From Candidatus Omnitrophota bacterium (lineage in GTDB: Bacteria > Omnitrophota > Gorgyraeia > Zapsychrales > Fredricksoniimonadaceae), in contig JACQCF010000014.1 in NCBI GenBank assembly GCA_016201795.1, forward strand, positions 49,648 through 113,647: a DNA stretch of 64,000 nt, written 5' to 3'. A program made the translations under genes and the position numbers. Position 1 is the first letter of the stretch; every line of letters begins with the position of its first letter. Under the pieces are notes generated by a model that saw nothing but the letters and a program-made list of their open reading frames with translations, did no database searches and was not told where the DNA came from. Below are positions 9,523 to 28,729 of the stretch, piece by piece.

Positions 9523-10113
9523 ATGGCCGACGCTAAATCTAACGCAGAACTTTTGACCATGGCGCGGGCTTTATCCATGGCGGTGAAAAAAGTGTTCTTT
9601 GAGAAATCCGAAACCAGGTTTTCCGGTGAGCCGATCATTGAAGAGAAGAGGATTACCCAGTTTGTCAACCGCATGCGTGTGGATGCCATGGAAAAGTTCA
9701 ATGTCACGACTTTTTTGTCAGCGGTCCACTATTATAAGGATACCGCGGCTCTGGAGAAAAACGATCCGGTGGGTTTGATCGTGGTCTATATCGAGCGTAC
9801 CTTTGTTCCCGAGATGCTGCGGCTTTTAAGATATCCTTACATCGATTATGATCATGACGATGAGGTCTTGGATGGCGCAGGAGCGATCGCCAATTTGATT
9901 GCCGGATATTTCAAGAAAGAGTTAAGTCGTCTGGGGTATATCGATCTGGAAATGTCGCATTTTAAAAGCGCCATCAACAGTGTTTTAGACGGCATTGAGT
10001 ATTGTAAAGGTCAGACGCACAAATATGAACTCAGCTTTAGCATCGAGGATCAAAAGAGATTAGCGGTGGAAATGGTCATGGGCCCTTTGCCTAAAATGAG
10101 CGGGGATGAGTAG
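9523..10113 (+). CDS. CheX/CheC-like putative CheY-P phosphatase-domain protein
   Basis: The segment DGAGAIANLIAGYFKKEL fits the E-x2-N-containing helix motif of the CheC/CheX/FliY phosphatase family. It lies between two receiver genes. Confidence 0.5.
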   Translation: MADAKSNAELLTMARALSMAVKKVFFEKSETRFSGEPIIEEKRITQFVNRMRVDAMEKFNVTTFLSAVHYYKDTAALEKNDPVGLIVVYIERTFVPEMLRLLRYPYIDYDHDDEVLDGAGAIANLIAGYFKKELSRLGYIDLEMSHFKSAINSVLDGIEYCKGQTHKYELSFSIEDQKRLAVEMVMGPLPKMSGDE

Positions 10114-10150
10114 TATTTAAGCCTGCCTGCCGGCAGGCAGAAAGAACAAT

Positions 10151-10516
10151 ATGTCTAAAAGAATTTTGGTGGTCGATGATGATCCTACTTTAATTAAAGT
10201 GATTCAGCCGTTTTTGGAATCCCACGGTTTTGCAGTGACCGTGGCCTGTGACGGTGATCAGGGCATTGAAGAGGTGAAAAAGAATCAGCCGGATTTGATT
10301 GTTTTAGACGTGCGGATGCCCAAAATGAACGGCTACATTTTTATTTTAGAATTAAAAAAAATCGTTAACATCAAAGCCATTCCCATTATTGTTCTCACCG
10401 CCAAAGAAGGGATGGCGGAGATTTTTAAAGTGGAAGGTGTTAAAGAATATGTCACCAAACCGTTTAAACCGGAAGCGCTTTTGACCGCCATTGAAAAATA
10501 TATTGCACCTGTCTAA
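10151..10516 (+). CDS. Single-domain response regulator (CheY-like receiver)
   Basis: MSKRILVVDDDP...LIVLDVRMPKMNG...IIVLTAKE...KPFKP. Confidence 0.85.
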   Translation: MSKRILVVDDDPTLIKVIQPFLESHGFAVTVACDGDQGIEEVKKNQPDLIVLDVRMPKMNGYIFILELKKIVNIKAIPIIVLTAKEGMAEIFKVEGVKEYVTKPFKPEALLTAIEKYIAPV

Positions 10517-13060: not shown

Positions 13061-13088
13061 TTGACAAAGATTAAAAATATGTTATAGT
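13061..13088 (+). promoter_or_regulatory. Sigma70-like promoter (TTGACA, 16-nt spacer, TATAGT) upstream of the 13099 ORF
   Basis: ttgaca at 13061-13066 and tatagt at 13083-13088. Confidence 0.4.
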
Positions 13089-13098
13089 TGATACAGTT

Positions 13099-13473
13099 AT
13101 GCGTAAAACAGTCAAAATCATCGCAGCAGTTTTTGTCGGTTTGATTTTCCTAGCCAGTGTGGCGTTATGCTCCTGTGCGGTTAAATCAGCGCATGTCTTT
13201 GGGAAAAAGATCTCCTGCTCTGATTGCGCTTCCAAAGCCCAGCCAACACCCCTCAGTCATGAATGTTGTTTGACCAAAACCATTCCTATGGATGCGGCTA
13301 AAAACTTAGTTGTGTCCATGCCTTTGTTTTCGTGGTGGCCAGTGGTGATGGCCAGCCTTCTCTATATTGTACCCCGTCCACATATTGCTTTTAGAACCGC
13401 CTATCTCAACGGCCCGCCAGGACTGGTTTCTCTAGTTCCTCTGTATATCCAATCCCGCAGTCTGCGCATTTAA
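13099..13473 (+). CDS. Small Cys-rich membrane-anchored hypothetical protein
   Basis: N-terminal TM followed by a CSC...CSDC...HECC cysteine cluster. It lies immediately upstream of the metal-efflux operon. Confidence 0.4.
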   Translation: MRKTVKIIAAVFVGLIFLASVALCSCAVKSAHVFGKKISCSDCASKAQPTPLSHECCLTKTIPMDAAKNLVVSMPLFSWWPVVMASLLYIVPRPHIAFRTAYLNGPPGLVSLVPLYIQSRSLRI

Positions 13474-13487
13474 CGCTTCCCAATAAT

Positions 13488-13579
13488 GCCATTGCGAGTC
13501 CCGACGATTGTATCGGGGCGAAGCAATCTTTTAATTTAGAAAGATTGCTTCAGTCGCTACGCTCCTTCGCAATGACACC
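13488..13579. repeat. REP/MITE-like imperfect palindrome built on a roughly 40-nt unit (copy 1)
   Basis: The right arm aaagattgcttcagtcgctacgctccttcgcaatgacacc is nearly identical to the reverse complement of the left arm of the 42101-42189 copy. The left arm here is a degenerate inverted copy. Confidence 0.55.
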
Positions 13580-13610
13580 AGTGAAACTTTAATAAGTTAA
13601 TGGAGGCGCT

Positions 13611-14699
13611 ATGAAAAGAATCATTCTTATATTAACCTTAGTTTTATGTTCAACAATCAATGGGTGGGCTAAAGATATTTACTATTGTCCCATGCATCCG
13701 TTTTATACCAGTGATAAGCCAGGCACTTGTCCCATCTGCTACATGAATTTGGTTAAAAAAAGAGGAGACCCCCGTGCGGAAGCTGCATTGATGGCACGTG
13801 AGGCCGCTGCTCACAGAAATGATGTGGCCGGTTACACACCGGTTCGCATTGATAACAGGCAAATGCAGTTGATGGGAGTCAGGACAACAGTGGTGCGCAA
13901 GCAAGTTTTGGTCAAGACCGTTAGGACTTTCGGCTATATTTCCACCCATCACCAGTTGTATGAACTGCAGGATGAATATATCCGGGCTTATTTGGATTTT
14001 ACGCTGGCCTTTCGTGATTACCGTCGAGCCGAACATATACGCCGCAGTTGGGAAACCCACCGCGAATTACAACTTAAACTGCACGAGGCTGAAGATAAAC
14101 TGCTGCGTTTAGGCTTTGGCCCTTATCAAATTGAGGAGCTGCAAAAGATTTCATGGAAAACCCCCTGGGTTCAGCCGCCATTACTGTTTTTTAAAGAAGG
14201 TAATGTGGTCAGTTATTGGGTGGTGGCGCAGATTTTTGAACAGGACATGGGGTTTGTGGAAGCCGGTCAAAAGGTACAAATAGAGATCCCTGCTTATGGA
14301 GAAAAGACCAAGGGTATTATCCGTTCGGTGGGGGGCATCTTGGATCAGCAGACCAGAACAGTTAATGCGCTCATTGAGTTGGATGGTTACAAAGGAGAAT
14401 TAGCTGGAAATATGTTGGTGAACGTCAGCATTGCCATTGAGCTGAATGAAGACCTTATTGTCCCGCAAGAGGCGGTGATGGATACGGGATTAAGGAAAAT
14501 TGTGTTTGTACAGACCCGGCCGGGTGTTTTTGAGCCGAGAGAAATTCAGGTGCTGGCTTTAGGCGATAACGGCTGGGCCGTTAAATCCGGATTAAAAGAA
14601 GGCCAGAAGGTCGTGGTCGATGGCAATTTCCTCATGGACTCCGAAAGCCGTTTGCAAGCAACCTTGGAAAACCAGTCGGGGGGTGATGACCATGATTGA
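13611..14699 (+). CDS. cusB: Efflux RND periplasmic adaptor (CusB-like) with N-terminal YxCPMHP...CPxC metal-binding motif
   Basis: Signal peptide. DIYYCPMHPF...CPICYM motif. The rest has the membrane-fusion-protein architecture. Confidence 0.8.
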   Translation: MKRIILILTLVLCSTINGWAKDIYYCPMHPFYTSDKPGTCPICYMNLVKKRGDPRAEAALMAREAAAHRNDVAGYTPVRIDNRQMQLMGVRTTVVRKQVLVKTVRTFGYISTHHQLYELQDEYIRAYLDFTLAFRDYRRAEHIRRSWETHRELQLKLHEAEDKLLRLGFGPYQIEELQKISWKTPWVQPPLLFFKEGNVVSYWVVAQIFEQDMGFVEAGQKVQIEIPAYGEKTKGIIRSVGGILDQQTRTVNALIELDGYKGELAGNMLVNVSIAIELNEDLIVPQEAVMDTGLRKIVFVQTRPGVFEPREIQVLALGDNGWAVKSGLKEGQKVVVDGNFLMDSESRLQATLENQSGGDDHD

Positions 14700-17600
14700 C
14701 AAGCTCATTGAGTTTTCCGCGCGCAATAAATATCTGGTTATTCTGGTGGTCATGGTCTCTCTGGCAGCGGCTATTTGGTCGATGAGAAATATTCCCCTCG
14801 ATGCCATCCCTGACCTTTCCGATACGCAGGTCATTATTTATTCCCGCTGGGACCGCAGCCCCGATATTATCGAGGACCAGGTGACCTATCCGATTGTCTC
14901 AACCCTTTTAGGCGTACCTGGTGTTAAAGCCGTACGCGGTTTTTCCGATTTCGGTTTTTCCTACGTCTATGTTATTTTTAAAGACGGCACGGATATTTAT
15001 TGGGCCAGAAGCCGCGTGCTGGAATATTTAAGCAAAATTATTCCGCGCTTGCCCGAGGGGGTGAGAAGCGAATTAGGGCCGGATGCCACCGGCGTGGGCT
15101 GGGTCTTTCAATACGCGCTCGTCGATAAAGGCGGCAAACATAATTTACAGGAGCTGCGCAGTTTTCAGGATTGGTATTTGCGTTATTATCTGCAAAGCGT
15201 GCCCGGGGTGGCGGAGGTGGCCCCTATCGGCGGTTTTGTCAAACAATATCAAATCACCGTTGATCCCAATAAACTTTTAGCCTATAACCTGCCTATCACC
15301 AAAGTGGTCGAATCCGTACGCCACGGCAATGAGGAGTCCGGGGGAAGATTGCTGGAATTTTCCGGTGCCGAATACATGGTGCGCGGCCACGGGTTGGTTA
15401 AATCAGTGAAAGATTTAGAAAATATCGTGGTAGCGGCAGATGTGAATGGCACACCCATTTTGCTTAAAAACGTCGCGCATGTGGCTATTGGCCCGGACAT
15501 CCGTCGTGGCCTGGCAGATTTAGATGGCCAGGGCGATGCCGTGGGCGGTACCATCGTCATGCGCTTCGGCGAAAACGCGCTCAATGTTATCCAGGCGGTT
15601 AAAGCCAAATTAAAAGAAATCGAGCCGTCTTTGCCCGAGGGCGTTAAGGTGGAGGTTACCTATGACCGCTCCGAACTCATTTTACGGGCGATTGATCATT
15701 TGAAGCATCAGCTCATCGAAGAAATGATTGTGGTTAGTTTGGTGATTTTGCTTTTCTTGTGGCATTTTCCTTCGGCATTTATCCCTATTATTACTATTCC
15801 CATTGCGGTGCTGCTGTCATTTATTCCGCTGCTGGGACTCAAAGTAACCTCCAACATCATGTCGCTGTCGGGCATTGCTATCTCCATTGGTGTTCTGGTT
15901 GATGGAGCTATTGTCCAGATGGAGAACGTCTATAAGCATTTGGAGTACTGGCACAAGGGACAGCGCCAGGAACATTACAGGGACGTGGTATTAAGGGCGC
16001 TCAAAGAGGTTGGCCCGTCGGTATTCTTCTCCTTGCTGGTGATTGCGGTTTCATTTTTGCCGATTTTTACGCTGGTTGATCAGGAGGGCCGTTTATTTAA
16101 ACCCTTGGCCTTCTCCAAAACTTTTGTCATGGCCATTGCCGCGGTTTTGGTGGTGACATTTAATCCGGCCATACGCATGCTGTTTTTACGCGTTCATCCT
16201 TTTAAATCCAAAATTGCTAATATGTTTCTGGTGGGCAAATATTATCCCGAAGAACAGCATCCGGTCAGCCGCGTACTGTTTCGCTGGTATGAACCGGTGT
16301 GTCGCTGGGTACTCAAGCACCCTAAACAAGTCTTACTGGGGGCTCTGATTGCGATGTTCACGACGGTTCCTGCCTATTTAAAACTTGGCTCTGAGTTTAT
16401 GCCTCCCTTGTGGGAAGGGGATATTCTTTATATGCCCATCACCATGCCGGGGATTTCCATCACGCAGGCCCAAAAACTTTTGCAGACGCAGGATCGCATT
16501 TTGAAAAGTTTTCCTCAGGTGGAAAGGGTTTGGGGCAAAGCCGGGCGCATGGAGAGCTCAACGGACCCGGCGCCTTTGTCCATGATGGAGACCACGGTGC
16601 TTTTAAAGCCGCCGTCTAAGTGGCCTAAGGCCATTTCCCACGAAGAGCTGATTAACCAGATGGATGCGGCGCTGAAAATTCCAGGGACCACCAATGCCTG
16701 GACCATGCCTATCAAAAACCGCATTGATATGCTCTCGACGGGGATCAGAACTCCTATTGGTATCAAAGTACTTGGTGCCGACCTTAATCAGATTGAACAT
16801 GTTGGAATTCAGTTGGAATCCATTTTAAAAGATGTGCGCGGTACGCGCAGTGTTTATGCCGAGCGTGTTTCCGGCGGGTATTTTTTGGATTTTGACCTCA
16901 AGCGCGAAGCCCTGGCCCGTTATGGCTTATCCATCGATGATGCCCAGATGACGATTGCCTCGGCCATCGGAGGTGAAAATATCACCACCACCATCGAAGG
17001 ACGCGAGCGTTATGGGGTCAATGTTCGTTATCCTAGGGAACTCAGGGACAATGTGGAAAAATTAAACAGGGTTTTTGTGGCTACGCCGTCGGGTATGCAA
17101 GTTCCTTTAGGTCAAATCGCGGATATTGTAATGCGCACCGGCCCCTCCATGATCCGTGATGAAAATGGTTTGATGTCCGGTTATGTGTATGTGGATGTAG
17201 CCGGGCGGGATATAGGTACTTATGTCGAGGAAGCCAGGGCGAAAGTGGCTTCCCAGCTCAAATTACCGCAAGGCTATAATTTGATCTGGAGCGGCCAGTA
17301 TGAAAATATGCTGCGTGTCAGGGAGAGATTAAAAGTGGTTATACCGTTGACGGTTTTTATTATCGCTTTGCTTTTGTATATGAACACTAAGTCCGTCGTG
17401 CCAACAGCTATTGTGCTGTTGTCCGTGCCGTTTTCTCTTATCGGGGCGGTGTGGCTGTTGTGGATTTTAGGTTATAACATCTCGATTGCCGTCTGGGTGG
17501 GGATGATCGCGCTCATGGGTCTGGATGCGGAAACCGGTGTTTTGCTGCTTTTGTTTATGGAATTAGCTTATAAGGATATGTTGCAGCGAGGGCAAATGAA

Positions 17601-17877
17601 AACGCGGGAGGATTTAAAGGCGGCCATCATTCAAGGGTCGGTGCGCCGTCTGCGGCCTAAGCTCATGACAGTGATGGCCGCATTCATAGGGCTTTTGCCG
17701 ATTATGTTCTCGGCTGGCACGGGGGCGGATGTGATGAAACGCATCGCGGCCCCCATGGTCGGCGGGCTGATTAGCTCATTTATCATAGGGCTTCTGGTTT
17801 ACCCGGCGATTTATTATTTGTGGAAAGTCAAAGGACTTTTAAAGAATAAACATGTCACAGAAAGGGGAAGTGTATGA
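14692..17877 (+). CDS. cusA: Heavy-metal efflux RND permease (CusA/CzcA family)
   Basis: About 1060 aa with 12-TM RND architecture. It has the HME-family N-terminus (MIDKLIEFSARNKYLV) and methionine-rich segments. Confidence 0.9.
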   Translation: MIDKLIEFSARNKYLVILVVMVSLAAAIWSMRNIPLDAIPDLSDTQVIIYSRWDRSPDIIEDQVTYPIVSTLLGVPGVKAVRGFSDFGFSYVYVIFKDGTDIYWARSRVLEYLSKIIPRLPEGVRSELGPDATGVGWVFQYALVDKGGKHNLQELRSFQDWYLRYYLQSVPGVAEVAPIGGFVKQYQITVDPNKLLAYNLPITKVVESVRHGNEESGGRLLEFSGAEYMVRGHGLVKSVKDLENIVVAADVNGTPILLKNVAHVAIGPDIRRGLADLDGQGDAVGGTIVMRFGENALNVIQAVKAKLKEIEPSLPEGVKVEVTYDRSELILRAIDHLKHQLIEEMIVVSLVILLFLWHFPSAFIPIITIPIAVLLSFIPLLGLKVTSNIMSLSGIAISIGVLVDGAIVQMENVYKHLEYWHKGQRQEHYRDVVLRALKEVGPSVFFSLLVIAVSFLPIFTLVDQEGRLFKPLAFSKTFVMAIAAVLVVTFNPAIRMLFLRVHPFKSKIANMFLVGKYYPEEQHPVSRVLFRWYEPVCRWVLKHPKQVLLGALIAMFTTVPAYLKLGSEFMPPLWEGDILYMPITMPGISITQAQKLLQTQDRILKSFPQVERVWGKAGRMESSTDPAPLSMMETTVLLKPPSKWPKAISHEELINQMDAALKIPGTTNAWTMPIKNRIDMLSTGIRTPIGIKVLGADLNQIEHVGIQLESILKDVRGTRSVYAERVSGGYFLDFDLKREALARYGLSIDDAQMTIASAIGGENITTTIEGRERYGVNVRYPRELRDNVEKLNRVFVATPSGMQVPLGQIADIVMRTGPSMIRDENGLMSGYVYVDVAGRDIGTYVEEARAKVASQLKLPQGYNLIWSGQYENMLRVRERLKVVIPLTVFIIALLLYMNTKSVVPTAIVLLSVPFSLIGAVWLLWILGYNISIAVWVGMIALMGLDAETGVLLLLFMELAYKDMLQRGQMKTREDLKAAIIQGSVRRLRPKLMTVMAAFIGLLPIMFSAGTGADVMKRIAAPMVGGLISSFIIGLLVYPAIYYLWKVKGLLKNKHVTERGSV

Positions 17878-18218
17878 AAACTAACATTATCATCATTGCA
17901 GCTCTTATTGGCCTTTTGTTGGGGTTTGTTTTGGTTTCTGGAGGACGGTATTGTTGCAGACTCAATCAGAACAGGCCAGCCCAGGCTTATATCCCGGTCG
18001 CCCAGGCAGATGCTCAAGCGAGCCAATCGGTGGAAGTGGGTAATACCATTTGTCCGATCAGCGGCAATTCGATTTATGCCATGGGAGGTCCTCTTAAGTA
18101 CGAGTATAAGGGGAAGATTTACAATTTATGCTGCGGGGGCTGCATCAGGCGTTTTGAAAGCGACCCTGAAAGATACAGCAAGATTGCCGAGGATGAAGCG
18201 AAAGGGCAAGCCCAATAA
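17874..18218 (+). CDS. YHS/TRASH-domain copper-binding protein
   Basis: CPISGNSI...YEYKGKIYNLCCGGCIRRFESDPERY matches the YHS domain. It has an N-terminal TM or signal segment. Confidence 0.7.
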   Translation: MKTNIIIIAALIGLLLGFVLVSGGRYCCRLNQNRPAQAYIPVAQADAQASQSVEVGNTICPISGNSIYAMGGPLKYEYKGKIYNLCCGGCIRRFESDPERYSKIAEDEAKGQAQ

Positions 18219-18243
18219 AATTACTCAAACAGGGAGGTATGAA

Positions 18244-18462
18244 ATGAAAAATCAAGCATGGATGATGGCCGTTTGCATGAGCACTTGCTGTCTGCTGCCG
18301 GTATTATTGGTTTCTGTGGCGCCCGCCGTGGGATTAAATAAACAGAGCATGTTTTTTATTTTTATAGTGGTTATGTTTTTGTGTTGCTTTATGATGATAC
18401 GTAGAGGGGACAGTTGCTGTGATCAACATAAAGATGAGGATCAAAAAAACAAACCGAACTAA
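18244..18462 (+). CDS. Small Cys-rich membrane protein (72 aa)
   Basis: GGGAGG ribosome-binding site 6 nt upstream of the ATG. Sequence MKNQAWMMAVCMSTCCLLP...CCFMMIRRGDSCCDQHKDED. It sits between the YHS and TolC-like genes. Confidence 0.4.
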   Translation: MKNQAWMMAVCMSTCCLLPVLLVSVAPAVGLNKQSMFFIFIVVMFLCCFMMIRRGDSCCDQHKDEDQKNKPN

Positions 18463-18483
18463 AACTTCAAGGGAAACCTGTTG

Positions 18484-19821
18484 ATGAAGAAGCACCGAGT
18501 TGTCTTAATACTATTTGTATTTGGATTAGTTATTTTTTTTCCCTTAAGAAGCCAAACAACGATGGCGGAAGAAACGGCTCCAGTACAGTCTACCTTGACC
18601 GAAGAGGAGGCTGTCAGGAATGCGATACGAAATAATTATGACTTACGGCTGGCAAAAGTAAGCGTTGAGTTGGCGAAAGCTCAACTCGTACAAGCAGGCT
18701 TATGGCCTAACCCGGAGGGTGAATTCTCTATCCGTAGTGATAAATATTACGCGAATGAAGGCGAGGGTGGTTATGAATATGGCCTCAATCAACCTATTCC
18801 GATAAGCGGCAGGTTATTCTCTCAAAAGAGGGTTGCCGAATTTGGCATTAAACGCGCCGAATGGCAATTGAACGACGTGAAAAGACAGGTTGTTGCAGAG
18901 GTAAAAAAAATATTCTATCAGGTCACCACACTTCAGGAAAAAGAAAAAATTTTAAGCTTTTTAGTTAAAACAAATCAGGATCTCCTTGAATCGGTGAAGG
19001 CAAGATTAAGTCAGGCCGAGGTTTCCAATGTTGACATCAGTTTAGCTCGTGGCGAACTTTTAATGGTGAGCCAGGAGCTTGCAGAAGTAAAAGCGCGTCT
19101 TTATGAATCGCGGGTCAATCTTAACAGGCTTATGGGACAGGGCTTAAACTATTCCTTCGCCACAGTATCTGAACCGTTAGCATTTCCATCCATTGATTTA
19201 GAAACAGCTACTCAAAATTCTTTAGAAAATCGCCCTGACCTGAAAGCAAAGGAATTGGAAGAGAAAATGGGCAGCGCTGCTCTAACCCTGGCCAAGGCCA
19301 TGCAGATACCTGACATTACGATAGGTGTTTTTTATCAAAGTGACAGGAATCGATTCGATGTGAACGATCAATTGATAAGCGATAACAGTCGTTTCATCGG
19401 GGCCAAAGTGTCAATACCCCTGCCGCTTTTTAACCGGAACCAAGGTGAGATCGCTAAGACCGCAGCCGAGAAAAAAGGTGCGGGTATTCAATATGAAGCC
19501 CTCAAGACACAGGTTGCTAAAGAAGTAGCGCAAGCGTATATCCGGTTAGCGGCGTCCAAAGAAATCATTGATTCCTATAGTAACGGAGTCAAGGAAGATG
19601 TGGAGAAATCAGTCAAATTAATGCAAAACGCTTATCTTCAAGGACAGGTGAGTGTATTTGATGTGGTTCAAACTCAGAGTAAATTTAACAGTATCGAAAA
19701 AGCTTATTTGGATGCCAGTCAAAACGCTAGAGAAGCGATCATCAACCTTGAGTCTGCGATTGGAGCGAGTTTAAAGAATGAAAAAATGGAGGAAGGAGCC
19801 CCGAAAGGAAAGAATCCATGA
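18484..19821 (+). CDS. TolC-family outer-membrane efflux protein (CusC/CzcC-like)
   Basis: Signal peptide followed by two outer-membrane-efflux-protein repeats (NNYDLRLAKVSVELAKAQL..., QNAREAIINLESAIG). Confidence 0.8.
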   Translation: MKKHRVVLILFVFGLVIFFPLRSQTTMAEETAPVQSTLTEEEAVRNAIRNNYDLRLAKVSVELAKAQLVQAGLWPNPEGEFSIRSDKYYANEGEGGYEYGLNQPIPISGRLFSQKRVAEFGIKRAEWQLNDVKRQVVAEVKKIFYQVTTLQEKEKILSFLVKTNQDLLESVKARLSQAEVSNVDISLARGELLMVSQELAEVKARLYESRVNLNRLMGQGLNYSFATVSEPLAFPSIDLETATQNSLENRPDLKAKELEEKMGSAALTLAKAMQIPDITIGVFYQSDRNRFDVNDQLISDNSRFIGAKVSIPLPLFNRNQGEIAKTAAEKKGAGIQYEALKTQVAKEVAQAYIRLAASKEIIDSYSNGVKEDVEKSVKLMQNAYLQGQVSVFDVVQTQSKFNSIEKAYLDASQNAREAIINLESAIGASLKNEKMEEGAPKGKNP

Positions 19822-20780
19822 AAATTCGAACAACAATTTTTACTTGTTTGGCAGCGATCGCCACAGTGATGTTATGTTTAGCCATACCGCAGCGATTATT
19901 TGCCCACGGCGCGGCCATCGAGACGGGCGGCGGGGGCGGTGGTGGGCCTGTAAAACTGACCAAGGAACAGCAAGCCGCCATCGGCTTGAAGACCGCGAAG
20001 GCCGAACTGGGTACTATTGATTCCGTCTTGGTGCTTAACGGCAAGGTGAAACTCGATCCAAATCTCCACATGCACGTCAGCACGCGTATTGAAGGCCGAG
20101 TTGAGAAACTTTACGCCAAGGTGGGTGATAGGGTAGAAAAAGGGCAGAAGCTCGTGGAAATCCAGTCACGCCAGATTGGTGACCCACCTCCTGTAGTCAC
20201 CATCGAGGCGATGGTCAATGGTATCATTAATGAACGCAGTATCACCCTCGGAGAAGCGGTTGAGCCTAACAAAGAGTTGTTTCATATCATTGATTTGTCT
20301 GAGGTCATCGTTGAAGCCGAGGTGTATGAAGAAGACATCGGCAAGGTGAAACTCGACCAATCCGTACGCATTCACGTCCCGGGATACCCCGCTGATGCCT
20401 TCGAGGGAAAAATCACGTTTGTCGGCTTGGAACTCGATCCTGAGAAACGTACGTTGCCCATCTGGATTTCAGTCAAGAATCCCGATTGGAAACTCCGGCC
20501 TGACATGTTTGCCAAAACCGCTGTTGTCCTCACTCACAACGAAGGTATTCTTTCCGTGCCGAAGGACGCGCTCATGGAGGAGGGCGGTGAGAAATTTGTG
20601 TTCGTACAGGTAGGCGACACGTTTAATCGCGTGGACGTGCAGGCGGGTGTTGAAGACGACCGCTTCGTTGAGATCAAAGATGGCCTCGTGCCCGACGATG
20701 TGGTCGTCACCGATGGCAAACGCGAGGTGTACACCAGTTGGTTGATGGGTGGAAAAAAGCCCGCTACCGACAAGGACTAG
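19818..20780 (+). CDS. Efflux RND periplasmic adaptor (second module) with a Gly7 linker
   Basis: Membrane-fusion-protein architecture (lipoyl/beta-barrel segments VLNGKVKLDPNLHMHVSTRIEGRV...). The start overlaps the TolC stop. Confidence 0.85.
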   Translation: MKIRTTIFTCLAAIATVMLCLAIPQRLFAHGAAIETGGGGGGGPVKLTKEQQAAIGLKTAKAELGTIDSVLVLNGKVKLDPNLHMHVSTRIEGRVEKLYAKVGDRVEKGQKLVEIQSRQIGDPPPVVTIEAMVNGIINERSITLGEAVEPNKELFHIIDLSEVIVEAEVYEEDIGKVKLDQSVRIHVPGYPADAFEGKITFVGLELDPEKRTLPIWISVKNPDWKLRPDMFAKTAVVLTHNEGILSVPKDALMEEGGEKFVFVQVGDTFNRVDVQAGVEDDRFVEIKDGLVPDDVVVTDGKREVYTSWLMGGKKPATDKD

Positions 20781-20804
20781 CCATCGAGAGCTGAAAGGAA
20801 GGTT

Positions 20805-23800
20805 ATGTTTGACAAACTGATCCTTTGGTCATTGAAGAACCGCCTGCTCGTTGTTGTTGGGCTGGTCGTGTTCCTGGTTATATCTACATTCACGACGATG
20901 CACATGCCCGTGGACGTGTTTCCCGAGTTTGCACCGCCACAGGTCGTCGTGCAAACCGAGTCGCCGGGACTTGCGCCCGAAGACGTTGAGTCGTTAATTA
21001 CATTTCCTGTCGAGAGCGCCGTCAACGGCACACCCGGCGTGGACAAAGTGCGTTCGCAATCCTCAGTCGGACTTTCAACCGTCATCATCGTGTTTGGCTG
21101 GGGAACAGACGTGTATGTGGCCAGACAGTTAGTCAACGAACGTATCCAGTCGGTGCGCGACCGTTTCCCCGCCGGTACGCAAGCACCCGTAATGTTGCCG
21201 ATCACATCGGCGGTTGGTTGGATGATCAAATACAGTCTTGAAAGCGACACACGCTCGCTGATGGACTTGCGCACAATTTCCGACTGGCAAATCCGACCGC
21301 GTATTCTAGCACTTGGCGGCGTTGCCTCAGTCGTGAGCATCGGTGGCGAAGTGAAGCAGTATCAGGTTCTTCTCGATCCTGACCGTATGAGCGCCTATCA
21401 CGTTAGTGTTGCCGAAGTGCAGGAGGCGCTGGCTAAAGCCAACGTAAATGTCCCCGGTGCGTTTCTGCAATCGCCAGGACAGGAATACATCGTCACCGGT
21501 ACGGCACGCATTCAATCGCTTGATGACTTACGGGACACAATTATTAAATATGAGAAAGGTACACCGATTTTTGTCCGCAACGTCGCCGAAGTAAAATTTG
21601 GCCCGCAGCTTAAGCGCGGCGACGGTGCCCTCAACCTTAAGAACGCCGTCATCGGTACGATCTCGAAAGCCTATGGCGCAGATACACTCGCCACGACTTA
21701 CAAAGCCGAGGCGGCATTGCGCGATATTCAAAAGCAGTTACCGCCGGACGTGAAACTGAATATGCAGGTCTTCCGCCAGGCGGACTTCATTGAAGGTTCA
21801 ATCCGTAATCTCAACCGAGCGCTCCTTGAAGGCGGCATCATCGTGACGCTCATCCTGTTCATCTTCCTGATGAACATCCGCGCGTCGTTCATCAGTTTTA
21901 TTTCGATGCCCGCGTCTTTGTTGGCTGGCGTGATGGTGCTGAAATGGTTTGGCGTGAGTCTCAACTCGATGACCATCGGCGGCTTGGCCATCGCTATCGG
22001 TGAGGTTGTGGACAACGCCATCATCGGCGTGGAAAATTGTTTTCGCCGACTCCGCTTGAACCGCGAGTCGTCCGCGCCGCGTCCGTCATTCGACATTGTG
22101 TTCGAGGCGACGAGCGAAATTATGAACTCGGTCGTCTATGCCACTTGTATCGTGGCGATTGTATTTCTACCTATCTTTTTTCTTCCCGGTTTGGAAGGAC
22201 GTATTTTTGCTCCGTTGGGAATTACCTATCTCGGCGCGTTGATTTGTTCGCTGGTGGTGGCGGTGACCGTCACACCTGCGCTTTGCTACCTGCTTATCGG
22301 CAACACGAAGAAGGAACTGCGCGAAAGTTTCGTTGCGCATTGGCTGAAGAAATACTATGAGCGATTACTGCATTTCACGCTGCGCCACGTGTGGCCCATC
22401 GTCATTACGGCGTTGGTTCTCGTCGGCGTGGTCATGGCGTTGATTCCGTTCCTCGGGCGTTCGTTCATGCCTGAGTTTCACGAGGGGAATTTCATCGTTG
22501 TACAAAGCACGTTGCCAGGCACATCGCTCGATGAATCCATGCGGCTTGGGCTTCTCGTGCGTCAGAAGCTTCTCAAATATCCGCAGGTCGTCTTGATTTC
22601 ACAGCGCGCGGGCCGCAGTGAACTCGATGAGGACGCTCAGCCGCCGAATTTCAGCGAGTTCGACGTAAAACTCGATTACGACCGTGACAGGAATATGCCA
22701 CCCGAAGAGTTGTTACGCCGCATTCGGGCTGACCTTTCGAAAATTCCCGGTGCGGTTTACAACATTGGCCAGTTTATCTCGCACCGATTCGACGAAGTAC
22801 TCTCAGGTGTACGTGCGCAAGTTGCCATCAAGATTTATGGCGACGACCTAGCGAAGCTGCGGCAAATCGGCTGGCAGGTGCAACAAATTCTGCAAACCGT
22901 GAAGGGCGTTGAAGACCTCGCGTTGGAGCAGCAGATCAATGTACCGCAGCTTATCATCCGTGTAAATCGTGAAAAGGCCAGCCGCTATGGAATTAAAACG
23001 GGCGAGTTGGCCGAGACGGTTGAGACGTTGCTTAACGGTATTACCGTCTCACAAGTGCTAGAAGGACAGAAATCGTTTGATCTGTATTTGCGTTTGCAGG
23101 ATTCGGCGCGCAACGACGCGAATTCCATCCGTAACATCCTCGTGGACGCGCCCGCGCTCGCCAAGAGCGGCGACGTGAAAGTCCCGCTGCGACAAGTCGC
23201 GCGGGTTGAGTTTGAACAGAAACCCTACTTCATCAACCGCGAAGACGTGCAACGGCGCATTGTCGTCTCCTGCAATGTTGCGGGGCGCGACCTCAACAGC
23301 CTGATTGTTGAGGCGCAGAAGAAAATCAACGAGCAAGTCACGCCAAAACTGCCGGGTGGCTATTTCATCCAATACGGTGGCCAGTTCGAGAGCCAGCAGG
23401 AAGCGCAGCGGATTTTGATGCTCTTTGGTATCGGCGCGGTGGTTGGTATTTTCCTAATGCTGTACCAGGCATTCGGTACAACGCGCGAGGCGTTGCTGGT
23501 GATGCTAAATCTGCCACTGGCGCTCATCGGCGGCGTGATTGCCGTTTTCTTGGCGGGCCGCGACTTAAGCGTACCGGCGATGATCGGGTTTATCAGCTTG
23601 TTTGGGATTGCCTCGCGCAACGGCGTCATTTTGGTCAGCCACTACAACCAGCTTCGCAAGGAAGGAAAATCACTGCGCGAGACGGTCGTGGAAGGCTCGC
23701 TCGACCGACTAAACCCCGTGCTGATGACTGCCGCGACCGCCGCATTAGGCCTTGTGCCATTGCTGTGGGGCGATCCAACGGGCAAGGAATTAGAGCGCCC

Positions 23801-23939
23801 CTTGGCGCACGTAATTCTCGGCGGTCTGTTCACCTCGACGTTTCTCAACATGGTCGTGATCCCGACTTTGTACAACAAGATTGAAGAGATTCGTCAGAAG
23901 CGGACCCAAAACAAAACCAACCCTCCAAAGGAGAATTAG
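20805..23939 (+). CDS. Heavy-metal efflux RND permease (CzcA/CusA family), second copy
   Basis: 1044 aa, paralogous to the 14692 gene (MFDKLILWSLKNRLLV...). Its GC content is visibly higher than the first copy. Confidence 0.9.
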   Translation: MFDKLILWSLKNRLLVVVGLVVFLVISTFTTMHMPVDVFPEFAPPQVVVQTESPGLAPEDVESLITFPVESAVNGTPGVDKVRSQSSVGLSTVIIVFGWGTDVYVARQLVNERIQSVRDRFPAGTQAPVMLPITSAVGWMIKYSLESDTRSLMDLRTISDWQIRPRILALGGVASVVSIGGEVKQYQVLLDPDRMSAYHVSVAEVQEALAKANVNVPGAFLQSPGQEYIVTGTARIQSLDDLRDTIIKYEKGTPIFVRNVAEVKFGPQLKRGDGALNLKNAVIGTISKAYGADTLATTYKAEAALRDIQKQLPPDVKLNMQVFRQADFIEGSIRNLNRALLEGGIIVTLILFIFLMNIRASFISFISMPASLLAGVMVLKWFGVSLNSMTIGGLAIAIGEVVDNAIIGVENCFRRLRLNRESSAPRPSFDIVFEATSEIMNSVVYATCIVAIVFLPIFFLPGLEGRIFAPLGITYLGALICSLVVAVTVTPALCYLLIGNTKKELRESFVAHWLKKYYERLLHFTLRHVWPIVITALVLVGVVMALIPFLGRSFMPEFHEGNFIVVQSTLPGTSLDESMRLGLLVRQKLLKYPQVVLISQRAGRSELDEDAQPPNFSEFDVKLDYDRDRNMPPEELLRRIRADLSKIPGAVYNIGQFISHRFDEVLSGVRAQVAIKIYGDDLAKLRQIGWQVQQILQTVKGVEDLALEQQINVPQLIIRVNREKASRYGIKTGELAETVETLLNGITVSQVLEGQKSFDLYLRLQDSARNDANSIRNILVDAPALAKSGDVKVPLRQVARVEFEQKPYFINREDVQRRIVVSCNVAGRDLNSLIVEAQKKINEQVTPKLPGGYFIQYGGQFESQQEAQRILMLFGIGAVVGIFLMLYQAFGTTREALLVMLNLPLALIGGVIAVFLAGRDLSVPAMIGFISLFGIASRNGVILVSHYNQLRKEGKSLRETVVEGSLDRLNPVLMTAATAALGLVPLLWGDPTGKELERPLAHVILGGLFTSTFLNMVVIPTLYNKIEEIRQKRTQNKTNPPKEN

Positions 23940-23940
23940 T

Positions 23941-24405
23941 ATGAAAACAAAATGGGTCGTCATCGTATTATTAAGTGTGGTGTTTGGCGTTGTTCGGTTC
24001 GCGTCGGCAGCCGAAGAACATGAACATAAAGAAGGTGAAGCGAAAATCCCCGCCACCATTAGCGGTATCTGGGCCGAGGTGAAGGAACACGAAGAACAAC
24101 TCGGCAAAATCATCGCGGACAAAAAGCTCGACAAGGTGCATGAGGTTGCCTTCGAGATCCGCGATTTGGTCAACGCCCTGCCAGACAAATCCATGGATCT
24201 GCTCGATGACAAACTGGCCAAGGTCAAGTCCAACGTCAAGTATGTGGCGGATATCGCCAAGCGTCTTGACGAATCCGGCGACGCCGGCGATCAAGTCGTC
24301 ACGGAAGCTAATTTCAAGAAGTTGCAGGACTTCTTGAAGACCATTGAAGCTCAATACCTGCCCGAGAAACTCAAGTACGAAGAAAAGAACGAACACAAAG
24401 AATAG
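23941..24405 (+). CDS. Periplasmic helical protein with His/Glu-rich termini (putative metal-binding chaperone or sensor-like)
   Basis: AAGGAG ribosome-binding site. Signal peptide. EEHEHKEGE at the N-terminus and EEKNEHKE at the C-terminus. Confidence 0.45.
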
Positions 24406-24428
24406 CTGCAATAAAAAGGATAAAACCC

Positions 24429-26720
24429 ATGATATATAAAGATCCTGTCTGTGGCATGAATGTTGATTCAGCATCAGGTATTCATGCTCATGTGCATGGA
24501 CAGGATTTTTATTTTTGCTGCCAACATTGTAAAGAGAAATTTCTGCGACAAAACAAATCTTCTACGCCAATATCTGCTCAACATGCACCCGTGCTTAAGT
24601 TTCATGAAACTTACGGGTGCCCTATGCATCCGGAAATCCATCAGAACCATCCTGGTGATTGTCCCCAATGCGGGATGCCGCTGGAGTCTTTATCCATCAA
24701 TGGTGATGAGGATCATGAAAAGAAACTGCTAAAAATTTTGAGCAGGAAGTTTTGGCTGGGACTTGTTCTAACGTTGCCGGTTTTAGTATTGGCGATGACA
24801 GAATTGTTGCCTTGGATGCAACTGGCTCTGGCAACAGCCGTGGTTTTGTTCAGTGGAGGTTTTTTGTTCACAAAAGCCTGGCAGTCACTGGTAAATAAAT
24901 CTTTGAATATGTTCACGCTGATTGCCTTGGGGGTTGGCGTGGCGTATGTCGATAGCCTTATCGCTGTTATGTTCCCGGATATCTTTCCATCGTCGATGAA
25001 AGCCAGAGGACAAGTCAATTTGTATTTTGAGGCGGCTTGTGTGATTACGGTACTGGTGGTCTTAGGTCAGCTGCTGGAAGCCAAAGCCCGCAGCCGAACC
25101 GGTCAGGCCATCAAAGCTTTGTTAGGATTAGCCGCCAAGAACGCTCACCGCATGAAGGACAGTCTCGAAGAGGATGTGCCCATTGACCAAATCCAAAAGG
25201 GTGATTTATTGCGCGTGAAGCCCGGGGAAAAAATTCCCACCGATGGCGTGATCGTGGATGGCCGCAGCGCCGTGGATGAGTCCATGATTTCCGGCGAGCC
25301 GATGCCTGTGGCCAAAACCGTCGGGGATCAAGTGATTGGCGCCACCGTCAATCAAACCGGCTCCTTTGTGATGCAAGCACAGAGAGTAGGTCGTGAAACT
25401 TTGTTAGCTCAAATTGTCGAGATGGTCGCCCGGGCCCAGCGCAGCCGCGCGCCCATTCAAAAACTGGCGGATAAGGTCTCGGGTTATTTCGTGCCCGTCG
25501 TCATTGCCATTAGTATGATCACATTTTTTATGTGGATGCTTTTAGGGCCCCAACCTCATCTAGCCTATGCCATGGTCAATGCCATTGCCGTTTTGATTAT
25601 CGCTTGTCCTTGCGCTTTGGGGTTGGCGACACCGATGTCCGTTATGGTCGGGGTTGGCCGTGGCGCGCAAATGGGCGTGCTCATCAAAAACGCCGAAGCG
25701 ATAGAGAAAGCCCAGAACATCACTCATGTCTTGACGGATAAAACAGGCACTTTAACCACCGGTAAACCTACGGTCACTGCGCTTAAGTCCGTACAAAATT
25801 TTAGCGATGACCAGTTAATATCTATGGCAGCTTCTCTGGAAGCGCACAGCGAGCATCCTTTGGCTAAGGCCGTGGTGGATTATGCTCAATCAAAAGGGAT
25901 TACTGTCTCTTCCATTAACAATTTTGTTTCTGTAACGGGGGCCGGAATCCAAGCACAATGCAATGGCCAAGACGTGCTATTAGGCAAGGCGGATTTTTTC
26001 AAAGACAAAGGGATCATTCTTCCTGATGATCTTCAACAACAAGCAATCGAATGGCAAAATAAGGCACAGACCGTTGTGTGGGTGGGCCTGGATAAGAAAG
26101 CCGTCGGTATCATAGCCATGGCTGATCCCATTAAGCCGACGACACCGTCCGCCGTTAGGGATTTGCATCAGATGGGACTTAAAGTGGTGATGTTGACCGG
26201 CGATAACCAAACCACCGCTTCTGCCATTGCTAAAGAGCTTGGGTTAGACGAGGTCTATGCGCAATTAAAACCTCAGGATAAAATGGAAATCATTAAGAGA
26301 TATAAAACCCAGGGAGCAAAGGTGCTGATGGCCGGCGACGGGATTAACGACGCGCCGGCTTTGGCTGAGGCCCAAGTGGGGGTAGCTATGGGCACAGGGA
26401 CGGATGTGGCCATTGAAAGTGCGGGGATGACCCTGGTCAAAGGGGATATCAACGGTATTGTTAAGGCGTTATATTTAAGCAAGGCCGTGATGCGTAACAT
26501 CAAACAAAATTTGTTTTTTTCGTTTATTTATAATTTTCTTGGCGTACCGATTGCGGCGGGAGTGCTGTATCCTGTTTTTGGCATCTTATTAAGTCCCATG
26601 ATTGCCGGTGCAGCCATGAGTTTTAGTTCAGTTTCTGTCATAGGCAATGCTTTAAGGTTGAATCGGTGGAAATTAACGGCTGAAAATTTTTTGGAAGAAA
26701 GGCATAAAGGAGGTGATTAA
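24429..26720 (+). CDS. copA: Copper/heavy-metal translocating P1B-type ATPase
   Basis: CPC motif ([10 protein letters not shown]), DKTGTLT and GDGINDAP. The N-terminus carries a TRASH/YHS-like motif (CGMNV...[10 protein letters not shown]) and a CPMHP...CPQCGM motif. Confidence 0.9.
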
Positions 26721-27953
26721 CAGCAAGATGGTCAGAATAATCAAAATAATGGTGGTCGACCAGCCGACGATGTTTTGAAATTTAGTATTCACTTTATCGC
26801 CCATGATTTCCGTATTATTGACCATGCGCATCATGGAGATTAAGACGATGGGCAGAAGCATGGCATTAATGACCTGGGTCCATATGGTAATTTCTATTAA
26901 AGGGGCGTTGGGTATGAGAATAATAATGACCGCGATGGTAAGGATGGAGGCAAACAACGTATAAAATTGGGGTGCGTCCTCGACGCGTTTATCAATCCCT
27001 GCTTCAAAGCCGAAGGCCTCGCAGATATAAAATGATGTTGCCAGCGGCAGAATGGTAGCCGAAAACACGGAGGCCACAAACAGGCCAAAGGCAAACAACT
27101 CCGAGGCCAGTATGCCGGCGAAAGGTTTGAGTGCCAGTGCGGCATCTTTGGCTTCGTGGATGACAATACCGTTTTGATGCAGGGTCGCGGCGCAGGAGAT
27201 GATGATAAATAACGCCACCACGATGGTGGCCACGCAACCGACGATGACATCCCACCGCGCGAATTTGTAATCCTCATGGCTGATACCTTTTTCGATGACG
27301 GCCGACTGCATATAAAACTGCATCCAGGGGGCAATGGTGGTGCCGATGATCCCTAAAACCATGCTGATATAATTTTTGTTCCATTCGATTTCGGGTTTAA
27401 CGAAGGCGGTGGCGATTTGACCCCAGTCTGGTCTGGCCAGCAAAGCGGAGATAATGTACGACAGAAGGCAAACACTAAACAGCAGAAAAATGCGTTCCGC
27501 CATTTTATAGTTGCCTTTGGTCACCAACATCCATACGCCCAGTGCCGTCAAGGGCACGGAGATATATTTGCTGATGCCAAAAATCGACATGCTGCCGGCC
27601 ACTCCGGCAAATTCGGTGGCGGTGTTGCCCAAGTCCGCAAACAGAAGTCCCAGAAAAATCCAGAAGGTAAGCTTGACGCCGAAATTTTCACGGATCAGAT
27701 CCGCCAGGCCTTTGCCGGTGTAGACGCCCATGCGCAGATTCATTTCCTGCACCACCACCAGGGCGATGAAGGAGGGGATTAAAGTCCAAAGCAGGCCATA
27801 ACCGTAAATGGCTCCGGCGACGGAATAGGTGGTGATGCCGCCCGCATCATTGTCCACGCTGCCGGTGACAATACCGGGCCCGAGGATGGCTAAAAATAAA
27901 CCAAAGTTTTTTAATAAACGGTTTTCTCTAATTTTTTCTATGAAACGCATCAA
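26673..27953 (-). CDS. Nramp/SLC11-family metal-ion transporter with non-canonical metal-site motifs
   Basis: LGPG...DNDAGG aligns with the canonical LGPG...DPGN motif. The TM6 segment IAPWMQFY aligns with IMPHNLY. The overall Nramp fold signature is intact. Its 3' end overlaps the 3' end of copA (convergent). Confidence 0.75.
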
Positions 27954-28132
27954 TGTCCTTTATAAATTTCCGCCAAAGGCGGATCCGTGAAGTCTCATCA
28001 TATAATAAAAGAGGCGGTCGTTGCAAGAGAGGAAAAGTAATTTCGTGTTGTTGATTGAGTACGAATCGGTTAAAATAATCATCATTACTAAGGAGATGAA
28101 GCCGCCCAACAAAAAATGTAAAGGAAAATGCT

Positions 28133-28723
28133 ATGTCCAATGAAATCCTTCTAGCTTTTATTCCGATGTTTTTTGCCATGGACCCGCTGGGGATCTTGGC
28201 TATTTTTGCCGGTTTGACTCACGGATTTTCAGCAGCGCAGAAACGCAAGATCATTGTCCAGTCGCTGTTGACCGCCATTTTGGTCGCTATTGGTTTTATT
28301 TTTTTGGGCAGGGCCATTTTTCATTTTTTAGGCATCGGCATAGGTGACTTTATGATTGCCGGCGGGGTGATTCTTTTTTGCCTGTCCATGGTGGATATGC
28401 TCAGTCAAAGCCTGCCGACCAGAAGACTCAAATCCGCGGATTTGGGAGCGGTTCCCATTGGCACACCGCTCATTGTCGGGCCTGCGGTTTTGACCATGGC
28501 GCTAATGTTGATGAATCAATTTGGCCTGGTGGTGGCTTTGATGGCGGTCGTGGCCAATATTGCCATTGTGGCCGTGGTCTTTTCGTTTTCCGAGAAACTG
28601 ATTCACCTCTTGGGAGCCAGCGGCTCCAGGGCCCTATCTAAAGTGATGTCTCTTTTGCTTGCCGCCATTGGCGTGATGATGATCCGCCGGGGCATTATGG
28701 AAATCATTGCTTCTTTGAAGTAA
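28133..28723 (+). CDS. marC: MarC-family (UPF0056) membrane protein
   Basis: IPMFFAMDPLGILAIFAGLT is a typical MarC N-terminus. Six TM helices are predicted. Confidence 0.75.
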   Translation: MSNEILLAFIPMFFAMDPLGILAIFAGLTHGFSAAQKRKIIVQSLLTAILVAIGFIFLGRAIFHFLGIGIGDFMIAGGVILFCLSMVDMLSQSLPTRRLKSADLGAVPIGTPLIVGPAVLTMALMLMNQFGLVVALMAVVANIAIVAVVFSFSEKLIHLLGASGSRALSKVMSLLLAAIGVMMIRRGIMEIIASLK

Positions 28724-28729
28724 CCCGCC

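Follow-up and report, generated by a model that had tools for sequence, protein, structure and literature searches.

A putative two-module copper/silver detoxification operon of Candidatus Omnitrophica headed by a candidate CutF-like leader gene

Introduction

Several copper operons are headed by small proteins, among them CutF of Rhodobacter capsulatus (cutFOG), CruR of Bordetella pertussis and proteins with the DUF2946 domain, most of which, CutF included, are exported (PMC9973294; PMC9426467; 10.1101/2025.02.05.636593). With CutF and CruR, ribosomes stall on the nascent chain in a copper-dependent manner, and in CutF a stem-loop covering the Shine-Dalgarno (SD) sequence of the next gene is opened by the stalled ribosome (PMC9973294; PMC9426467; 10.1101/2025.02.05.636593). 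In both proteins 45 residues separate the copper motif from the proline motif (PMC9973294; PMC9426467). A published survey of 5,334 CutF-like proteins, which includes both CusD and SilD from Cupriavidus, found OEP, CusA and CusB among the commonest downstream neighbours, and CusD and SilD are themselves CutF-like leaders upstream of cus and sil RND operons (PMC9973294; PMC9426467; 10.1101/2025.02.05.636593). Here we describe a unit of ten genes (ca. 13.6 kb) from the genome of an uncultured groundwater bacterium of Candidatus Omnitrophica, located in a stretch of 64,000 nucleotides (contig JACQCF010000014.1 of assembly GCA_016201795.1, positions 49,648 to 113,647; the window from here on). The unit carries two RND pumps, probably forms a single copper/silver detoxification operon and begins with a gene, ORF124, that we interpret with moderate confidence as a divergent CutF-like leader followed by a conserved helix that would mask the next SD.

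The pumps of this locus are compared below with CusCFBA (and CusRS) of Escherichia coli, with CopBAC of Synechocystis (plasmid pSYSX) and with gene clusters found in plasmids of Legionella. The Synechocystis CopA-RND is a copper pump of class HME5, a class that also contains the nickel pump NrsA (PMC7060636; PMC4335983). Our literature search found no characterisation of the Legionella RND cluster. CzcA, CnrA and NccA are divalent-cation pumps of classes HME1 and HME2; the signature of these classes in transmembrane helix 4 (TM4) is DFG-x3-DGA-x3-VEN, abbreviated as D-D-E (PMC3637150).

Gene order and modules

All ten open reading frames (ORFs) are on the + strand, with short or overlapping junctions and a near-consensus promoter in front. 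Module 1 (13099-18218) consists of ORF124, a CusB-like adaptor, a CusA pump and a YHS protein, and module 2 (18244-26720) of ORF72, an outer-membrane factor (OMF), a second adaptor, a second pump (RND2), the small protein P154 and a CopA ATPase. An earlier note, made from the sequence of the window, had described this gene order and read it as a compound heavy-metal resistance locus built around two paralogous RND modules; both statements agree with what we found, given the positions of the ten ORFs, the domain calls (Pfam and NCBIfam models run on the ten products) and the identity of only 30% between the two pumps. Taken as a whole, the sequence evidence makes a single copper/silver detoxification operon with two modules the probable explanation of the locus. 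Most of it is ordinary, i.e., known pump families joined in ways that are also found elsewhere, and the notable part is the variant of regulation suggested by its first gene.

The candidate leader gene

ORF124 (13099-13473, + strand) encodes a Cys-rich protein of 124 amino acids, predicted to be exported, with an architecture like that of CutF. Compared with the orthologous contig L003 (88% DNA identity), the gene has a dN/dS of 0.35, the sole indel is an in-frame one of 3 nt and all six cysteines are kept, a pattern that points to a real gene under purifying selection. A full HMMER scan of 1.84 billion representatives recovered about 20 full-length relatives of 118-128 amino acids, to which more were added from the fetched loci; a profile search of the genome contigs with a tighter ORF124 alignment gave 5 loci where the first ORF124 scan had given none. 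The family starts with a hydrophobic signal ending in CCC, recognized as an export signal by its hydropathy (19-residue maximum of 1.9-2.9 in all members). After it ORF124 has a CxxC (C40-C43) and a CC (C56-C57), then a poorly conserved middle, and the family ends in the tail Y-x-N-G-P-P-G-x5-P-L-Y-I-Q-x-x-S-L-R-I. Conservation in the family peaks in the last 24 residues, where the mean frequency of the commonest residue is 0.67 against 0.29-0.42 elsewhere. The Pro-Pro pair (PP), at positions -19/-18 from the end, is followed by exactly 17 residues in all 23 aligned sequences, and the distance from CC to PP is 46-49 residues in 22 of them. Pfam and NCBIfam gave no significant match to any of the 23 family members, and the DUF2946 model (PF11162) found neither ORF124 at E<=0.01 nor any of the 23 at E<=1. 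The NCBIfam family HYC_CC_PP was considered and rejected, its only hit being a non-significant one to a single member (E=0.043, 14 bits against a cut-off of 28). In the AlphaFold2 model of ORF124 only the N-terminal helix is confident and the tail is coil (pTM 0.30).

A sigma-70-type promoter precedes the gene (13061-13088, + strand; TTGACA, 16 nt, TG-extended TATAGT). It agrees with the consensus at 11 of 12 positions and was the best site in a scan of 16 kb. Its hexamers are kept in six loci (the window, L003, L088, L089, L091 and L096; the comparison loci carry the prefix L), and in all six exactly 10 nt separate the end of the -10 hexamer from the ATG of ORF124, with no SD in this interval, so that the transcript would be leaderless or nearly so. 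The sequence between the -35 and -10 hexamers varies freely from one locus to another, which argues against a conserved operator. In another organism a perfect palindrome, TATGGCATACC-N7-GGTATGCCATA, lies between the TTGACA box and the ORF124-like gene (L034, 125-184) and could be a repressor operator there; nothing comparable was seen in the Omnitrophota loci. A separate internal promoter for module 2 was also sought and discarded, promoter-like sites numbering 20 against 19.9 in shuffled sequence.

The earlier note had found no classical regulator, and neither did we: no DNA-binding regulator or histidine kinase appeared among the approximately 40 ORFs that were scanned across the 64-kb window, a part of those present. 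The only signalling genes found were two receiver-only CheY-like proteins flanking a CheX-like gene (9137-10516). This trio is unlikely to be the regulator, because its synteny is kept in all the related genomes whatever the content of their copper locus.

Directly after the stop codon of ORF124 lies an anti-SD strand, CGCUUCCCA (13474-13482, + strand), and the SD of the adaptor gene, GGAGGCG (13602-13608, + strand), is predicted to be sequestered by it in a helix: CGCUUCC (13474-13480) pairs with GGAGGCG in the minimum-free-energy fold. Across the family, the SD was paired with the first 1-8 nt after the stop in six of seven such folds, where per-locus shuffles gave this result with frequencies of 5-25%. 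We then looked at the complementarity of the duplex itself, taking as background both shuffled sequence and random 18-mers drawn from these loci. It was present in all 11 family loci, with p<0.06 in 10 of them and a combined p of about 1e-10, a value that is optimistic, given that the eleven loci share ancestry. No alignment of the intergenic sequences is possible and the bases that pair vary from locus to locus (CGCUUCC/GGAGGCG, GUCUCU/GGAGGC, UCCUUGG/CCAAGGA, UCCAA/UUGGA), and the spacer between ORF124 and the adaptor gene measures 137 nt in the window and between 52 and 82 nt in the other ten loci of the analysis. This predicted and conserved SD-sequestering helix appears to be the notable feature of the locus, rather than the hairpin highlighted before.

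The hairpin itself, a REP-like (repetitive extragenic palindromic) structure, had been placed at the start of the operon, but it is actually between the first and the second gene (13487-13577), in the loop of the putative regulatory helix, with a fold z-score of -5.0. A second copy of this element of about 95 nt is found at 42103-42188 in the opposite orientation, 85% identical. The copies have terminal inverted repeats (GTGTCATTGCGA...TCGCAATGRCA) and both are intergenic, just upstream of a gene. The element was not found in the orthologous spacers, and Rfam and tRNA scans of the whole window gave no match, i.e., the hairpin corresponds to no known RNA family; since no U-run follows, it is not a typical terminator. 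Judging from these features it would be an insertion resembling a miniature inverted-repeat transposable element (MITE) or REP in the loop of the helix, leaving the closing pairing between anti-SD and SD intact, and it looks organism-specific. Other palindromes, rich in G and C (CCCTCCCCCTTGTGGGGAGGG... and CCCCTCCCCTTACCCCCTCCCACCAAGGGAGGGG), occupy positions 41765-41875, after a gene ending at 41760, in a spacer of 420 nt that is otherwise AT-rich.

A divergent ORF124-like gene (138 amino acids) was found before the OMF of RND2-type cassettes in the groundwater contig L093/L094 (1945-2361) and in L008 (17338-17754). In these cases the spacer is 250-380 nt and there is no CusB gene behind it. 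The leader family therefore heads both types of pump.

Comparison with CutF, CruR and SecM

The resemblance of ORF124 to CutF and CruR is one of architecture. The protein is small (<150 amino acids), with an N-terminal export signal and Cys metal motifs, its Pro-Pro comes about 45-49 residues after the Cys motif and the gene is directly upstream of copper-homeostasis genes on the same strand; moreover, like in CutF, a predicted intergenic stem hides the SD of the next gene. It differs in its start, which would be of the leaderless type, and in the phylum of the host, Omnitrophota. SecM-secA offers a second parallel, since here too an exported leader with conserved residues over about 18 C-terminal positions is followed by a helix that masks the next SD. 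Counted from the last residue, ORF124 has PP at -17/-18, PLY at -10 to -8 and R at -1, and SecM has F150, W155/I156 and R163 before P166. There is no sequence similarity between the two, and the presumed signal is metal and not the secretion status.

The mechanism that we propose runs as follows. The near-consensus promoter would yield an almost leaderless ORF124 message, and export of the protein would take place during its translation, on the model of CutF and CruR. When a ribosome comes to the end of the invariant C-terminal tail, or is arrested on it, the helix would melt and cusBA could be translated. Copper bound to the Cys motifs would alter the length of the ribosome's stay on the last codons of the ORF, so that translation would respond to copper. 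In its most specific form the ORF124 family would be a previously unrecognised group of metal-sensing ribosome-arrest leader peptides, translated from leaderless mRNA, engaged at the Sec translocon and arrested at their own stop through the NGPPG-x5-PLY-x6-R-x tail upon periplasmic copper binding, which would unmask the ribosome-binding site of CusBA. We put this version forward as a tentative one.

A number of points weigh against it. ORF124 and its relatives, as said, have no DUF2946 match; the PP, 17 residues from the end, falls outside the criterion of the last 15 residues applied to CutF-like proteins (PMC9973294); and the family has NGPPG and the invariant PLY...R-x tail in place of RAPP or PPP near the end. 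Stalling at the PP codons themselves was discarded, because they lie 51 nt upstream of the stop, too far for the ribosome to melt the anti-SD strand, and the model thus requires that the ribosome be arrested, or terminate slowly, at the stop codon. The invariant distance from PP to the stop would fit such an event, with GPPG, PLY and the Arg lining the exit tunnel. Besides, part of the C-terminal conservation may act at the level of the RNA, because the Arg codon two before the stop is always CGN and never AGR in the 11 loci with DNA available (13459-13473 for this end of the gene in the window), and the S-L-R codons spell CUCCG in several of the loci (the homologous codons of L003, L033, L034, L098 and L099 were compared with those of the window). 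Such a CUCCG would act as a further anti-SD strand beneath a ribosome that is terminating. Taken alone, the helix would simply couple translation, without any sensing of metal. A regulator acting in trans could be encoded in the part of the source contig beyond the window (ca. 58 kb) or in the rest of the genome, and in the L093 relative a two-component pair is found about 5 kb downstream. The evidence for the regulatory model is, in short, comparative sequence.

Some of these points also serve a different reading, in which ORF124 is an ordinary mature accessory protein, e.g., a membrane-anchored periplasmic copper chaperone replacing CusF, the helix provides constitutive coupling and metal control comes from a regulator located elsewhere. 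None of the ten products has a CusF domain (Pfam), ORF124 is Cys-rich and predicted to be exported, and the sequestration of an SD that is relieved by upstream translation is a common device without any sensing. A regulator could have escaped us, as only half of the source contig is within the window, and one relative (L093) has the two-component system near its locus. The C-terminal LRI (hydrophobic-x-hydrophobic) could presumably be a recognition tag for a protease or a PDZ domain as well. However, the part of the protein that is most conserved is a tail of 24 residues predicted as coil and at a fixed distance from the stop, while the Cys region and the middle are poorly conserved and the structure prediction gives no globular fold. 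The spacing from Cys to PP is that of CutF and CruR, and the free variation between the -35 and -10 hexamers shows no conserved operator to which a regulator might bind. We see the chaperone interpretation as possible, on the doubtful side.

The CusA-type pump of module 1

The first pump, RND1 (14686-17877, + strand), is of the CusA type (class HME4), a predicted Cu(I)/Ag(I) pump. It scored 1109 bits with TIGR00914 (cut-off 701) and 1034 bits against the E. coli CusA structures, compared with 506 bits against ZneA, and is 45% identical to CusA. The three methionines of the periplasmic cleft (M573, M623 and M672 in E. coli numbering) are all Met in RND1 and in the orthologues of L089 and L091. 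Its TM4 reads SIG-x3-DGA-x3-MEN (S-D-E), so that the first Asp of the divalent-cation signature is missing. The adaptor before it, MFP1 (13611-14699, + strand), is CusB-like and has an N-terminal HMBD (CPMHP..CPIC; Pfam HMBD and HlyD_D23); with the CusB subfamily model it reached 92.9 bits (cut-off 390) and only the general adaptor family model was passed. The module closes with a membrane-anchored YHS-domain protein (17874-18218, + strand; Pfam YHS).

Like in E. coli CusCFBA, a CusB-family adaptor precedes and overlaps a CusA-type pump that keeps the Met triad and the key charged residues. Unlike it, the present locus has no CusF, no CusRS among the ORFs scanned and no OMF of its own in the resident module. 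MFP1 bears the HMBD in place of the N-terminal methionines of CusB, the YHS protein comes after the pump and the Cys-rich leader ORF before the adaptor. The order adaptor-CusA-YHS is found in about a dozen unrelated metagenome loci besides the syntenic relatives. In one related metagenome-assembled genome (MAG) the CusA homologue is broken up into one ORF of 593 and another of 429 amino acids (L088, 11822-15009), either a pseudogene or an assembly frameshift.

The second pump and its substrate

RND1 and RND2 are only 30% identical and are thus not the product of a recent duplication; as far as sequence comparison can tell they are old paralogues, of the HME4 and the HME5-like clades, and a tandem duplication within one narrow clade, which the earlier note had kept in mind as the alternative, does not describe them. 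RND2 (20805-23939, + strand), an HME5-like heavy-metal pump, reached 897 bits with TIGR00914. Its best annotated relatives are the pumps of Legionella plasmids (58-60% identity), followed by those of cyanobacterial plasmids (ca. 46%), and it is closer to the Synechocystis CopA-RND of copBAC (44-45% identical) than to CusA (30%). At the positions of the CusA Met triad RND2 has Val, Phe and Glu, it contains the HRxDE motif and its TM4 reads AIG-x3-DNA-x3-VEN (A-D-E), without the first Asp and thus without D-D-E. The Synechocystis CopBAC and Legionella pumps share with it A/V, V/F/L and E at the triad positions, the A-D-E in TM4 and HRxDE. We therefore place RND2 closest to the HME5-type pumps, a placement made from pairwise identities, scores and residues in comparison with Synechocystis CopA-RND, CusA and ZneA. 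RND2 most probably handles copper too, an assignment in which our confidence is lower.

Other products of the module are consistent with a copper cassette. The ATPase (24429-26720, + strand) is of the CopA type (P1B-1, Cu(I)), with YHS and HMBD domains at the N-terminus, and scored 619 bits with TIGR01511 (cut-off 397). Its translation contains the motifs ACPCALG (CPC, TM4), FIYNFLG (YN, TM5) and AAMSFSS (MxxSS, TM6), and it is 51% identical to the CopA of the Legionella cassette. The OMF (18481-19821, + strand), of the OEP/TolC family, passed only the general OEP family model (Pfam, 163 bits), with 27.9 bits in the Cu/Ag OMF model against a cut-off of 598, and is 86% identical to the OMF of L008 and L093 and 30% to that of the Legionella cassette. 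The adaptor of the second pump, MFP2 (19818-20780, + strand), is above the cut-off of TIGR01730, and its identity is 43% to the Legionella adaptor and 81% to the adaptor of L093. MFP2 and its Legionella homologue (L005, 8078-9001) both have an AHG near the end of the predicted signal peptide and after it a Gly-rich linker, GGGGGGG in MFP2. An N-terminal His on the mature MFP2, if present, could bind metal.

The order adaptor, RND and protein of about 150 amino acids is shared with the Synechocystis CopBAC and the Legionella clusters. Unlike those systems, no CopRS or CsoR was found among the ORFs scanned here, and in contrast to Legionella the ATPase comes after the pump rather than before it and there is no multicopper oxidase.

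The earlier note had implied that the pumps are divided into one for Cu/Ag and one for Zn/Co/Cd, proposing that the Met triad and D-D-E residues be inspected. The residues do not agree with such a division: the triad is intact in RND1, as expected, it is absent from RND2, neither pump has D-D-E and the nearest characterised relative of RND2 is a copper pump. A version of this idea is a locus of dual specificity, in which module 1 exports Cu(I)/Ag(I) and RND2 with P154 a divalent cation (Ni, Co, Zn or Cu(II)). The copper reading of RND2 is itself drawn from relatives, the HME5 clade also holds NrsA, the nickel pump on which the class was first defined (PMC7060636), and P154, with its His/Glu-rich N-terminus, has His, Asp and Glu among its invariant positions in place of Met or Cys. 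RND2 has in addition Glu at the position of CusA M672, the HRxDE motif and an acidic ELDEDA stretch, and its score is slightly higher with ZneA than with CusA (526 against 507 bits). By name, the top NCBIfam matches of MFP2 and of the OMF are subunits of divalent exporters, IhpB (124 against 450 bits) and IhpA (65 against 650 bits), in both cases far below the cut-offs. But RND2 lacks the D-D-E, with AIG-x3-DNA-x3-VEN against the DFG-x3-DGA-x3-VEN of the divalent-cation pumps (PMC3637150), and its nearest characterised relative pumps copper. Its nearest annotated homologues are located between csoR-copA and a multicopper oxidase, many P154 homologues have an HMBD (as do the CopA ATPase and the CusB-like adaptor at their N-termini) and the cassette of module 2 ends in an ATPase of the Cu type. 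On balance we find dual specificity rather unlikely, and most likely the whole locus is devoted to copper and silver rather than to copper and zinc.

In the transport scheme that results, CopA would carry cytoplasmic Cu(I) into the periplasm, the CusA-type RND1 would export periplasmic Cu(I)/Ag(I) by way of the methionine triad and RND2, with P154 as its periplasmic partner, would be a second and mechanistically different exporter, most probably for copper too. The single OMF would presumably be common to both pumps.

History of the two modules

Module 1 is conserved by itself. Four related genomes (L088, L089/L090, L091 and L096) have PckA, PurU, the ORF124 homologue, the adaptor and CusA in this order, then YHS and, where the contig reaches that far, MarC, TamB and ZnuA; in L088 and L096 an Nramp gene lies between CusA and YHS. 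ORF72, the OMF, the second adaptor, RND2, P154 and CopA are absent from the locus in the four of them. Most of the genes of module 2, for their part, are found together elsewhere, in a different order. Legionella plasmids contain csoR-copA-tolC-adaptor-RND-hypothetical (150 amino acids)-multicopper oxidase, with identities to the window genes of 30% (OMF), 43% (adaptor), 58-60% (pump), 31% (small protein) and 51% (ATPase). The groundwater contig L093/L094 has CusA-YHS-ORF124-like followed by OMF (86%), ATPase, adaptor (81%), RND2 (84%) and a P154 with HMBD (82%). The unit OMF-adaptor-pump-small protein is thus common to the Legionella plasmids and to L093/L094, the ATPase having a different place in the groundwater contig. 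The GC content at third codon positions of MFP2, RND2 and P154 is 0.60-0.66, against 0.41-0.57 for most of their neighbours.

From these comparisons the simpler reading is that module 1 would be the resident unit of the lineage and module 2 a second cassette added downstream in the same orientation; a loss of module 2 in the relatives would be the less simple alternative. We have high confidence in the composition and module history of the locus. The OMF between the two adaptor-pump pairs, which had been noticed as unusual, is indeed at that position, but it is no anomaly, because it heads the transport genes of the second cassette as its first structural gene in the canonical order OMF-adaptor-pump.

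Accessory proteins and flanking genes

The small accessory ORFs had also been regarded as odd insertions. They are present, but a YHS protein after CusA is common and ORF124, ORF72 and P154 all belong to recurrent families. P154 (23941-24405, + strand) has 154 amino acids, a signal peptide and His/Glu-rich ends, and is predicted to be a periplasmic four-helix bundle. It has at least 168 homologous clusters, with identities of up to 84%, in MAGs of Omnitrophota, Chlamydiae and Verrucomicrobia; among the matches listed, many homologues are fused to an HMBD. P154 is 31% identical to the product of the gene after the Legionella RND, and most of its invariant positions are occupied by His, Asp, Arg or Gly. 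AlphaFold2 gave a confident four-helix bundle (mean pLDDT 80.6) with disordered His/Glu-rich ends, and the fold search in the PDB gave no specific match, only generic four-helix bundles (PsbQ, cytochrome c', designed proteins) with E>0.1. Neither a relationship with CopC of Synechocystis (no detectable similarity) nor the weak Pfam match to DUF6746, below the cut-off and unused, was retained. Most simply, P154 would be the periplasmic partner of the RND2-type pump.

ORF72 (18244-18462, + strand), the first gene of module 2, encodes 72 amino acids, Cys-rich and with two hydrophobic segments, and has GGGAGG 6 nt upstream of its ATG. A word-indexed search of public protein sets found no copy, not even of the ORF itself. 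A translated search of the fetched loci found homologues in L009, L025, L097 and L099 with the pattern MKN..WMM..CC..P...GGGCC..H, in all four loci near and upstream of a CopA ATPase and in L009 directly adjacent to it. A resemblance of ORF72 to DUF2933 was considered and rejected, since Pfam gave no match even at E=5. ORF72 appears from this recurrence to be a small membrane protein associated with CopA. One could also suppose that the frames of ORF124 and ORF72 are open by chance and that the locus is no more than two adjacent pump operons. The lack of Pfam and NCBIfam matches and the absence of ORF72 from public protein sets might speak for this idea, but it is effectively refuted by conservation, that is, by the full-length homologues, conserved motifs, in-frame indel and dN/dS of ORF124 and by the strong ribosome-binding site of ORF72 and its MKN..WMM..CC..P, GGGCC homologues in four loci near CopA.

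Upstream, the unit is flanked by PckA and PurU, preceded by the two CheY-like proteins with the CheX-like gene, and downstream by a convergent Nramp gene, then MarC, a TamB-like gene, ZnuABC, an FKBP gene and a ZIP gene. The Nramp gene is on the - strand and its 3' end overlaps copA by 48 nt. The metal-uptake genes at 26673-34208 (Nramp, ZnuABC, FKBP/SlyD-like and the ZIP transporter) adjoin the efflux operon, i.e., genes for the import and the export of metals are clustered at one place.

Implications

The pump genes are standard and by themselves tell only of a heavy investment of this Omnitrophota lineage in the export of copper. Within them, the HME5-like pump with its conserved four-helix periplasmic partner, often fused to an HMBD, would represent a widespread and uncharacterised RND subtype associated with copper, one that works without the methionine triad of CusA. 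The ORF124 locus, in turn, appears to bear every architectural element of the CutF/CruR principle, in a family that domain models and published filters have missed. If our interpretation is true, the range of the CutF/CruR mechanism would be widened in phylum, in motif and in target, here the CusBA pump, and there would be a regulator-free and purely translational control of RND efflux by copper outside the Proteobacteria, through a tail unrelated to RAPP. If confirmed, the promoter, the ORF of 124 codons and the helix, joined to a reporter, would make a compact and testable cassette.

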